DNA of 64,000 nucleotides from the NCBI GenBank assembly GCA_023475345.1, contig JAMCWD010000040.1:22137-86136 (forward strand), read 5' to 3'. Of the stretch, positions 15,084 to 16,248 are shown piece by piece. This DNA comes from Chloroflexota bacterium (lineage in GTDB: Bacteria; Vulcanimicrobiota; JAMCWD01). The notes under the pieces are model-generated. The model ran no database searches. It saw only the letters and a list, made by a program, of their open reading frames with translations, and was not told where the DNA came from. Every line of letters starts with the position of its first letter. The stretch's first letter is position 1. The translations under genes were made by a program, and so were the position numbers.

Positions 15084-16076
15084 TTACTGGGGGCCGAACC
15101 CGAAAGTCATTTTCAGCTTGTCCCAGAAGCTCAGTTTCTGGTTCGCCATGTTGTACGCGCCTTCCTGGAAAGCCTGTCTCTGGAAAAGACCTTTCACCCT
15201 GACGAACGGGTTCTGCCAGAAGCCGTGATTTTTCAAGTTCCCATTGCCGTCGAGAAGCCCGTGGACATCCTGCCCGTTGGGGAACGGGTTATCGGGATCA
15301 TTGGGGTCGTCAAGAGATACGATGTTATTCATGGTGCCTTCATAAACCGGAGGGTCGGTACAACTGTCGTAAAAATTGAAATCGTCTTTATTGCCGACGA
15401 GCGCATGACTCCCCTTGCCGACATACACTACAGGGTGGGAGCCTTTCCATTCGATCTGGGACGTGCTGTAAGCCTGGTTGCCGCCTTCGTCTATTTTGCC
15501 TTCCTGCGTGGCGACATAAGAAACGGAATCGAAATGGGAATTGGTATATACGTATTTCGGCTGGCCGTTTTCTTTTACATATACCTGGACATACTGGAGG
15601 TCATGCTCGTGCTGATCGACATAGAACGGGTTCTCGGACCAGTAATACCAGTACTGGTAAACCTTGTATTTCTCACCGTTGATTTCAGTGAACATCTCAT
15701 GAGTATAAACCGTCCCCTGCCGGCTGCTTACATTCCCGACATTTTCCGACCCGCCCAGGGTGTTGTTGTAGTTGTCCTTGTTATTGAGCATATCCCAATC
15801 GCCGTCGAAATTCATGCCGACAGGGGCCAGAGTTTCTCCGCCGGTCAAAGCCCCGTCGCCGCTCATGACGAGATAAGGGTTATACATTTCGGCCGTCCCG
15901 TAAGGAGGCGTGTCTCTGGGGATATCGGGCGTCCTGGCTTCATCCGCCGCTTCGGAAGAGATGGCTATCAGGTCGTTTTCACTGCTACCGGCAGCGGATG
16001 ACCGCTCTGTCTTTTTAATATGGGTTTGTTCCAGTTGAATAGGTATAGAGTTACCCGAAACTTTATTAATCGACAT
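15084..16076 (-). CDS. FlgM-like N-terminal module fused to a Vps62/DUF946-like domain; hypothetical
   Basis: ATG 16076 follows GGAGGGG by 6 nt (the track opens at 16103). N-terminus MSINKVSGNS...ENDLIAISSEAADEA. Core YQYWYYWSENPFYVDQHEHDLQYVQVYV ... GSHPVVYVGKGSHAL resembles the Vps62/DUF946 signature as I recall it. Confidence 0.75.
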   Translation of the reverse strand: MSINKVSGNSIPIQLEQTHIKKTERSSAAGSSENDLIAISSEAADEARTPDIPRDTPPYGTAEMYNPYLVMSGDGALTGGETLAPVGMNFDGDWDMLNNKDNYNNTLGGSENVGNVSSRQGTVYTHEMFTEINGEKYKVYQYWYYWSENPFYVDQHEHDLQYVQVYVKENGQPKYVYTNSHFDSVSYVATQEGKIDEGGNQAYSTSQIEWKGSHPVVYVGKGSHALVGNKDDFNFYDSCTDPPVYEGTMNNIVSLDDPNDPDNPFPNGQDVHGLLDGNGNLKNHGFWQNPFVRVKGLFQRQAFQEGAYNMANQKLSFWDKLKMTFGFGPQ

Positions 16077-16248
16077 GACGATCCCCTCCGTTATTTTTAT
16101 CACGATTTTTATTGAGAAGTTAAGACCGGGATTCTATGAGATTTTTTGGAAGGTTTAATATTTTATAATCGGGGTAAATAAAACTTCAAGCGGTGAAAAA
16201 ACAAGGTTTTTAACCGGCAAATAAAATATTCAAAGGAGGTTACCGGAA

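Follow-up and report, generated by a model that had tools for sequence, protein, structure and literature searches.

A conserved N-terminal leader with modest resemblance to the exported half of FlgM on two toxin-like proteins from an uncultivated bacterial lineage

Introduction

The signals for type III export are hard to recognise from sequence, and we know of no cargo of the flagellar type III secretion system (T3SS) that has a sequence-defined signal of the kind considered here. The FlaC and Cia proteins of Campylobacter jejuni and YplA of Yersinia enterocolitica are natural non-flagellar cargo of this system and, to our knowledge, the few such passengers have no tag in common, share no recognisable FlgM-type leader, and do not consist of varied domains placed behind one conserved leader. 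MakA of Vibrio cholerae is also a natural cargo of this kind (PMC6123715). FlgM belongs to the late substrates of the flagellar export apparatus, and this route is also taken by foreign proteins that have been fused to FlgM (PMC7911332). Engineered FlgM fusions are used to secrete foreign peptides via the flagellar T3SS of Salmonella (PMC3372961; see also PMC7911332). In the present work, we have analysed a stretch of 64,000 nucleotides (referred to as the window) from the 116-kb contig JAMCWD010000040.1 of a metagenome-assembled genome (MAG), whose GenBank label is 'Chloroflexi bacterium'. Two of the genes in this window, P1 and P2, encode proteins whose first ~45 residues form a leader that appears to be common to both families, bears some likeness to the N-terminal half of FlgM and may serve as an export signal for the toxin-like domains which follow it.

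The proteins P1 and P2 are similar to MakA, FlaC, the Cia proteins and YplA in being toxins or effectors that lack a Sec signal and for which an exit through the flagellar channel is proposed; in the case of P1 and P2, this proposal is made from sequence. With the engineered FlgM fusions they share the presence of FlgM (or FlgM-like) sequence at the N-terminus and of an unrelated passenger at the C-terminus. However, the engineered fusions are man-made and contain FlgM itself, whereas P1 and P2 are natural proteins, which have the first ~45 residues only and are conserved in several metagenome lineages. The effectors of injectisome-type T3SS have a disordered N-terminal signal of ~20-30 residues, followed by a chaperone-binding strand of alternating hydrophobicity. 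The leader of P1 and P2 is likewise disordered and then shows a short alternating-hydrophobic strand, but no injectisome genes were seen, and the 63-aa partner of P2 (described below) is smaller than the class I chaperones (~130 aa). Constant N-terminal trafficking modules combined with variable toxin domains are also known, viz. LXG of the type VII secretion system (T7SS), MIX and PAAR. Another module of this kind is WHIX, which serves T6SS (type VI secretion system) toxins (PMC12135965). P1 and P2 resemble such polymorphic toxins in that one N-terminal module is found on different toxin-type C-terminal domains within a genome and in that P2 adjoins a small partner gene. However, the modules of polymorphic toxins are folded and linked to T6SS or T7SS, whereas the leader of P1 and P2 is a disordered stretch of ~45 residues containing a single short motif, and no T6SS or T7SS was seen nearby. 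In the literature searched, natural fusions of a FlgM leader to toxins are not described, nor was any usable information on the flagella of this lineage found.

The genes that are of interest here, including a third gene (P3) that had been grouped with P1 and P2 in a preliminary description of the window, are as follows.

15084 to 16076, minus strand: P1 gene, 330 aa (MCL5037274.1, locus tag M1269_09190), leader and divergent NPP1/NLP-like domain
57426 to 58535, plus strand: P2 gene, 369 aa, GTG start (MCL5037314.1, M1269_09395), leader, P/K/S/T-rich linker, helical and ADP-ribosyltransferase (ART)-like domain
7867 to 8346, minus strand: P3 gene, 159 aa, GTG start (MCL5037266.1), showing the loose leader pattern only

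The start codons chosen earlier for these genes are identical to those in the GenBank annotation, the homologues of P1 and P2 all begin with M-x-I, and the N-termini quoted previously for the three proteins agree exactly with the sequence. The ATG at 16076 of P1 is preceded by GGAGGGG and the GTG at 57426 of P2 by GGAGGAG; in P3, AGGAG is followed after 9 nt by the GTG at 8346. The open reading frame (ORF) of P1 extends to an in-frame upstream GTG at 16103, which is not used as the start.

Results and Discussion

A leader common to the P1 and P2 families

The two leaders are located as indicated below.

15936 to 16076, minus strand: leader of P1, residues 1-47, MSINKVSGNS...ENDLIAISSEAADEA, with no hydrophobic core
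57426 to 57569, plus strand: leader of P2, residues 1-48, MRIDPIKSDS...AAGDSVHLSKQPGKSP

Both of them have the same layout, in which M-x-I is followed by ~30 variable polar residues and then by D-x-[VI]-x-[LI]-S at residues 35-41. Four relatives of P1 were found (46-71% identity to P1), of which two come from the 'Ca. Eremiobacteraeota' MAG GCA_021159575.1 and one is a paralogue (P0004, M1269_02015), which is encoded elsewhere in the genome to which P1 belongs; for P2 there are also four relatives, which are metagenomic. Within the P1 family (n=5) the residues M1, I3, I20, D35 and S40 are invariant and the other positions among the first ~50 vary, and within the P2 family (n=5), all members of which begin with M-[RQ]-I, the invariant residues are M1, I3, P5, D36, L40 and S41, with variation in the ~30 residues between them. 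Outside the leader the two families are unrelated. When the leader profile of the P1 family is aligned with that of the P2 family, columns 27-43 of one are placed on columns 27-43 of the other, i.e. in register (hhalign P=3.8e-4, probability 36%), and a profile made from the P1 leaders only ranks P2 first among ~2,770 unrelated six-frame fragments from the window and all loci, though with a score of only 4.6 bits. As judged from these invariant positions and in-register profiles, it is very probable that a conserved leader common to the P1 and P2 families is real. The regular expression ^M.I.{25,45}D.[VI].[LI][SN] is matched by 4 of 1,370 candidate starts, where 0.22 would be expected, but this enrichment cannot count as separate support, as P1-P3 themselves had been seen before the pattern was written and served as its source.

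In an AlphaFold2 (AF2) model of P1, residues 1-60, which include the leader, are unstructured save for one strand residue at position 38, with very low confidence. Ser accounts for 18% of the first 50 residues of P1, the third residue is Ile, and acidic residues are absent from the first 12. A word-indexed protein search with the alignment of 11 leader sequences gave no match at E<=10, and a tblastn search of plasmids with one leader also gave no match.

A leader of this kind could also be devoid of any role in export, in which case the disordered extensions would share the motif by chance, or for reasons of stability, autoinhibition or oligomerisation, and P2 together with its 63-aa partner would form an intracellular toxin-antitoxin pair. 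The low scores between the two families (4.6 bits, and the hhalign probability of 36%) are in accordance with this explanation, as is the post hoc definition of the pattern, the loose form of which is seen in P3 to match unrelated proteins. However, the two families agree in five or six invariant positions, which lie at the same distance from Met1, while the intervening residues change, and the alignment of the two leaders is in register. We regard this explanation as unlikely, and further observations that bear on it are noted below in connection with the domains of P1 and P2.

The preliminary description had recognised one N-terminal module in three proteins. This view is supported for P1 and P2, but it does not extend to P3, which scores 2.3 bits against the combined leader profile of P1 and P2 (~rank 22 of 1,370 N-termini). 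The motif in P3 is displaced and ends in N (D41...N46), its residues 15-37 are unlike the polar low-complexity spacer of P1 and P2, and its sole known relative is 94% identical to it. Due to these differences P3 is not considered a member of the leader family. Searches with P3 of metagenomes, PDB, Pfam and PHROGs found nothing. In the 1.2-kb gap upstream of P3 there is a direct repeat of 254 nt, the two copies of which (8624-8877 and 9225-9478) are 93% identical and 601 nt apart. Both copies contain the same Q/T-rich ORF of 78 aa (8641-8877 and 9242-9478, plus strand), which is divergent from P3 in orientation and has no Pfam match.

A protein of 214 aa (1564-2208, plus strand, at locus L009 on contig JAGHEA010000118.1 of GCA_021159575.1), the gene for which lies directly 3' of the P1 paralogue P0003, also has a leader- or FlgM-like appearance by eye, as it starts with MADYDEIRPIDAIGN and its residues 46-58 read CDRIEISDEAHEE. 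This protein has no match in Pfam or PDB, and its score of 3-4 bits is not significant, so that it is not included in the leader family.

The C-terminal domain of P1 and the place of a Sec signal

The part of P1 that follows the leader is specified below.

15087 to 15884, minus strand: NPP1/NLP-like domain of P1, about residues 65-330, containing YQYWYYWSENPF...DQHEHDLQYVQVYV and HPVVYVGKGSHA

This domain had been described earlier as Vps62/DUF946-like. We reject this assignment, as PF06101 has no match to P1 (E<=1) or to 11 members of its family (E<=10), and homology to NPP1 is found instead. A tblastn search of plasmids with P1 retrieved Bacillus genes for 'NPP1 family protein' (E=8e-4 to 4e-2). 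When the P1-family profile extended with the distant relatives from loci L002 and L004-L007 was used as the query, hhalign aligned it with WP_286015183.1 of B. arachidis over 146 columns with a probability of 97.5% and E=7e-12, and the latter protein is itself above the gathering score of Pfam NPP1 (25.1 vs 21 bits). Over these 146 columns, P1 keeps the core YxYWxYY...HEHDW/L-E/Q...V-Y-V and HP...GSHA of the Bacillus NPP1-family protein. However, P1 differs from the NPP1/NLP (Nep1-like) proteins in remaining below the Pfam threshold (PF05630 has no match to P1 and the best of 11 family members has E=0.25), and in having QHEHDLQ for the heptapeptide GHRHDWE, where W and E are not kept; the distant homologues have WHDHD[LF]E, and H-x-H-D is nearly invariant. 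Based on this sequence homology the C-terminal domain of P1 is interpreted as a divergent NPP1/NLP domain. The AF2 model of P1, which is based on five sequences, is unusable (predicted local distance difference test score, pLDDT, 36.6), a PDB sequence search with the full P1-family profile gave nothing meaningful, and PHROGs had no match for P1 or P2.

The N-terminus of WP_286015183.1 is a textbook Sec signal peptide, MMNKKIYLSIFCSLAALTSSNTIAYA, and the P1 leader occupies the place of this Sec signal. No other observation argues as strongly for a function of the leader in export or targeting. The earlier statement that P1, P2 and P3 have no Sec signal peptide agrees with their lack of a Sec-type hydrophobic core, the 11-residue hydropathy maximum being 0.55-0.72 as compared to 2.05 in a Sec-secreted homologue. 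Further, NLPs are extracellular cytolysins, and a cytoplasmic P1 would for this reason be odd; that the verified member of the P1-domain family is Sec-secreted likewise speaks against a leader with no role in export. In addition, different toxin-type domains are found behind one leader in one genome (viz. in P1, P0004 and P2), which is the pattern expected of a trafficking module. From these sequence relationships, we consider it rather likely that the leader acts as a signal for export or targeting.

Some other observations concern P1 and its relatives. The paralogue P0004 has, at residues ~218-260, an insertion of 43 residues inside the NPP1-like domain; this insertion contains an internal duplication (VWENSDLYNMEKSG / VWENANLYDMERSG) and is found in no other member of the family. 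The homologues of the P1 domain at loci L004-L007 (JGI Ga0079995 to Ga0080007) come from organisms of very low GC content (22-24%) and have a K/N-rich, non-Sec N-terminal extension, MLNIKKVVNLF...VDNLKLDLDEKD; their conserved neighbourhood includes a gene for a protein of 114 aa, which by eye looks like SpoIIAA/STAS. Convergent to P1 and separated from it by a gap of 30 nt is a gene (13818-15053, plus strand) for a protein of 411 aa, which has a signal-peptide-like N-terminus, ends in ...EARIKF and has no Pfam match. This protein has the look of an outer-membrane beta-barrel, which suggests a diderm envelope.

The C-terminal domain of P2 and its partner gene

In P2 the leader is connected to the C-terminal domain by a linker of ~85 residues that is rich in P, K, S and T. 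This domain and the ORF that follows P2 are indicated below.

57822 to 58532, plus strand: C-terminal domain of P2, with the R-S-E motifs FHxYRG (R223), S-W-S (255-257) and E-E-E (304-306)
58629 to 58820, plus strand: acidic ORF of 63 aa, pI 4.3, located 93 nt 3' of P2 and having its own Shine-Dalgarno sequence

Within the P2 family (n=5), YRG (R223), S255-W-S257 and E304-E-E306 are invariant and occur in the order R-S-E, with a spacing that is typical of the R-S-E ADP-ribosyltransferases. P2 has no match to the ART models of Pfam, and a PDB sequence search with the P2-family profile gave nothing meaningful. The AF2 model of the C-terminal domain has a pLDDT of 66. In a Foldseek comparison of this model with PDB none of the matches is significant, and IcmQ, the Vis toxin and PARP12/15 rank among the first ten (E 0.3-1.6); in a comparison with BFVD the top matches are uncharacterised proteins, with one 'ADP ribosyltransferase' at rank 49. 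Thus, the earlier description of P2 as ART-like is upheld by the invariant R-S-E motifs and by the high position of ART folds in a non-significant Foldseek list, but not by a match to any ART model. The C-terminal domain of P2 is probably an ADP-ribosyltransferase. No match to P2 was found in phages, and the single match in plasmids appears to be a frameshifted remnant in Deinococcus.

The gene for the 63-aa protein is kept 3' of the P2 homologues in two other assemblies (L010 and JGI sample 3300075153). At L010, the P2 homologue is followed by a partial ORF that is by eye ~70% identical to the 63-aa ORF, and a gene for a protein of 63 aa is present 3' of P0009. The product of this ORF is a candidate inhibitor, immunity protein/antitoxin or chaperone. 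The conservation of this partner gene is one of the observations favouring the explanation in which the leader has no export role, as is the absence of a recognised export apparatus from the window and the loci. The pair formed by P2 and the 63-aa protein is also reminiscent of the pairs of toxin and immunity protein, or of effector and chaperone, in contact-dependent systems, which is of importance for the question of the export route considered below.

Resemblance of the leader to FlgM

A search of 177,635 distinct PDB sequences (E<=10) with the combined profile of the 11 leader sequences gave a sole match, viz. FlgM of Aquifex aeolicus (1rp3_B, E=0.012), and this match is in register, with profile positions 16-44 falling on residues 15-43 of the chain. 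If the profile is made from the P1 leaders only, then Aquifex FlgM is again the top match (E=0.023), followed by a match with E=1.9. On 199,000 residues of unrelated six-frame translation, the maximum score of the leader profiles is 4-7 bits, as compared to 18-19 for FlgM. In the FlgM of E. coli (RefSeq), which begins MSIDRTS...TSVTLSDAQAKL, SVTLSD is present at residues 40-45, and the layout is that of P1, MSINKVS...DLIAISSEAADEA (LIAISSE).

FlgM and the leaders are thus alike in their M-x-I-[ND] start, in the polar disordered spacer, and in D/S-x-V-x-L-S at ~35-45, with no Sec signal in either. However, P1 and P2 are proteins of 330-369 aa with toxin-type domains, whereas FlgM has ~90-100 aa, and the leaders are without the helices that bind sigma-28, have no PF04316 match, and have neither a flgN/flgA neighbour nor a visible sigma-28 promoter. 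The FlgM-type layout proposed earlier is in agreement with the Aquifex profile match and with the layout of E. coli FlgM; a match to PF04316 is absent for every leader. The latter result is to be expected, because the leaders hold at most the first few positions of this model and none of the sigma-28-binding helices. Based on sequence comparison, it should not be interpreted that P1 and P2 are members of the FlgM family; that they carry something resembling the N-terminal half of FlgM is modestly supported.

The sigma-28-binding half of FlgM is said to begin at the D-x-V-x-L-S motif. One may ask in this context if the leader is left over from FlgM and has retained the binding of sigma-28 (FliA), so that P1 and P2 would be anti-sigma-like, or would have sigma-28 as an export chaperone, as in FlgM. 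The presence of the D-x-V-x-L-S motif at residues 40-45 of E. coli FlgM is consistent with such binding, and the matching Aquifex FlgM comes from an entry for the complex with sigma-28 (1rp3/1sc5). However, both proteins lack the C-terminal helices (~50 residues) of which the Pfam FlgM domain is composed, PF04316 having no match at E<=10, and in their stead P1 has its NPP1-like domain (330 aa in total) and P2 its linker and ART-like domain (369 aa in total); further, no fliA gene or sigma-28 promoter was seen in the ORF lists of the window or in the promoters inspected by eye. Retention of sigma-28 binding is, in our view, highly improbable.

Promoters and gene neighbourhoods

The promoter-like elements upstream of P1 and P2 are as follows.

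16093 to 16123, minus strand: predicted sigma-70-type promoter of P1, TTAACT ... TGATAAAAAT
57375 to 57388, plus strand: extended -10 promoter-like element of P2, the 14-mer AAATTTGTTATAAT

The sequence ATAAAAATCGTGATAAAA is conserved upstream of the J7M18 orthologue of P1. The 14-mer AAATTTGTTATAAT is found in identical form upstream of P3 (8379-8392, minus strand), at 32-37 nt before the start codons of P3 and P2, and TTGTTATAAT occurs 3 times in the window, as against 0.14 expected. The sharing of AAATTTGTTATAAT by P2 and P3 may reflect a shared promoter class or co-regulation.

P1, P2 and P3 occur singly among housekeeping genes (pdxST, photolyase, nucleoside phosphorylases, glcDF, murI, tmk and rpsB), and flgN or flgA is not adjacent to P1 or P2. 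A scan of genome contigs with the P1 family gave one locus only, and a scan of metagenomes with this family gave five loci, the latter without flagellar neighbours. The locus in the genome contigs that is informative in this regard is L002, on the MAG contig JALUEN010000159.1, the genes of which are listed below in contig coordinates.

1233 to 2326: P1 homologue, 34% identical, interrupted by a run of N
2402 to 2731: fliN, 76 nt downstream of the P1 homologue and on the same strand
2803 to 2876: tRNA-Gln

The FliN encoded here matches PF01052 with E=1.8e-27 and passes the threshold of TIGR02480 (107 vs 84 bits), and the models for flagellar FliN outscore that for SctQ. The occurrence of this fliN outside the fliM-fliN-fliO context is unusual. 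In the window itself, a perfect microsatellite, (CTCTTCT)x9 at 29600-29663, is present immediately upstream of the only tRNA, a tRNA-Leu(CAA) at 29716-29802.

The route of export

If the observations described above are considered together, then the following reading of P1 and P2 is tentatively favoured. P1, P2, the P1 paralogue M1269_02015 and their orthologues in the 'Ca. Eremiobacteraeota' MAG would be exported, toxin-like cargo, in which a divergent NPP1/NLP (cytolysin-type) domain forms the cargo of P1, and a probable R-S-E ADP-ribosyltransferase, paired with a small acidic protein, that of P2. In both P1 and P2 the Sec signal would have been replaced by the disordered leader of ~45 residues, composed of M-x-I-[NDKRST], a polar spacer of ~30 residues and the strand-like D-x-[VI]-x-[LI]-S. 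This leader would correspond to the exported N-terminal half of FlgM up to the boundary motif, at which the sigma-28-binding domain begins, and it would act as a portable type III export signal, such that the flagellar export gate takes P1 and P2 as FlgM-like late substrates and releases them via the flagellar channel. The flagellar T3SS as the export route of P1 and P2 is a possible but uncertain part of this reading, and the reading as a whole, viz. a FlgM-like leader serving as a flagellar type III signal on toxin-like cargo, is put forward as a provisional one. A capture of FlgM's export half as a portable leader, both on an NLP-type cytolysin, which has lost its Sec signal, and on an ADP-ribosyltransferase with a small inhibitor, seems more doubtful.

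A number of results weigh against the reading just described. The link to FlgM consists of one PDB sequence with an E value of about 0.01-0.02; FlgM is not retrieved from PDB by the profile of the P2 leaders only, E. coli FlgM scores only ~3 bits against the leader profile, PF04316 has no match to five isolated leaders (E<=10) or to the full proteins (E<=1), and NCBIfam gives no FlgM family for the full P1-P3 (E<=1). Further, the leader is not detected by the profile in the distant P1 homologues (L002 and L004-L007), and an exhaustive profile search of 1.84 billion proteins yielded no further leader-bearing family; apart from the P2 family, it retrieved just three proteins, which consist of or contain repeats (PEDTVELN, PEDAVHLNGG or GDSVQLSAP); the lack of new families is accounted for by the leader profile, which with 48 positions is too short and holds too little information. 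The promoters of P1 and P2, and those of their orthologues, are of a sigma-70-like, extended -10 type (TGnTATAAT), with no sigma-28 box seen by eye. No flagellar or T3SS gene was recognised in the 64-kb window, based on inspection of the ORF lists by eye and on Pfam searches with a subset of the proteins, and none was seen in the other loci with P1 or P2 homologues (L001, L003-L010 and L014-L018). The fliN of L002 stands alone and is then followed by tRNA-Gln, and because of this its adjacency to the P1 homologue may be accidental. Lastly, the acidic partner of P2 could also be explained if P2 were part of an intracellular toxin-antitoxin pair, or if it were an interbacterial toxin of another delivery system.

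Several of these results lead to a related explanation, in which the leader is a real targeting or export module, or else a removable pro-region, but the route is non-flagellar and the likeness to FlgM has arisen by convergence of a disordered polar N-terminus and a strand motif. Candidate routes in this case include an injectisome-type T3SS, loading into a contractile injection system, recognition by an adaptor of the T6SS type, vesicles, and release that depends on lysis. The conservation of the leader and its position in the place of a Sec signal are in agreement with such a route, and the marginal, single-sequence similarity to FlgM, the lack of flagellar genes near P1 and P2 in this lineage, their sigma-70-like promoters and the likeness of P2 and its partner to the pairs of contact-dependent systems are in its favour. 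However, no gene of such systems was seen in the window or the loci, FlgM is the sole PDB protein found with the combined leader profile and is aligned in register from the N-terminus, and the one informative neighbourhood contains a fliN of the flagellar type, which is better matched by FliN models than by SctQ. A non-flagellar route with a convergent leader is conceivable, but we view it with some doubt.

Significance of the leader

If the reading in which P1 and P2 are cargo of the flagellar export gate is correct, then the flagellar type III apparatus would have a second role as a dedicated system for the secretion of toxins, with a recognisable, sequence-defined signal, and there would be evidence for the export of toxins by this route in an uncultivated lineage (Chloroflexi or Eremiobacteraeota according to GenBank). 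The leader would in that case also be a natural counterpart to the biotechnological secretion of FlgM fusions, and it would provide a sequence handle, by means of which flagellar or other type III cargo could be found in genomes. Irrespective of the route that is used, a portable non-Sec leader on toxins of the NLP and ART types would be new and is worth testing.

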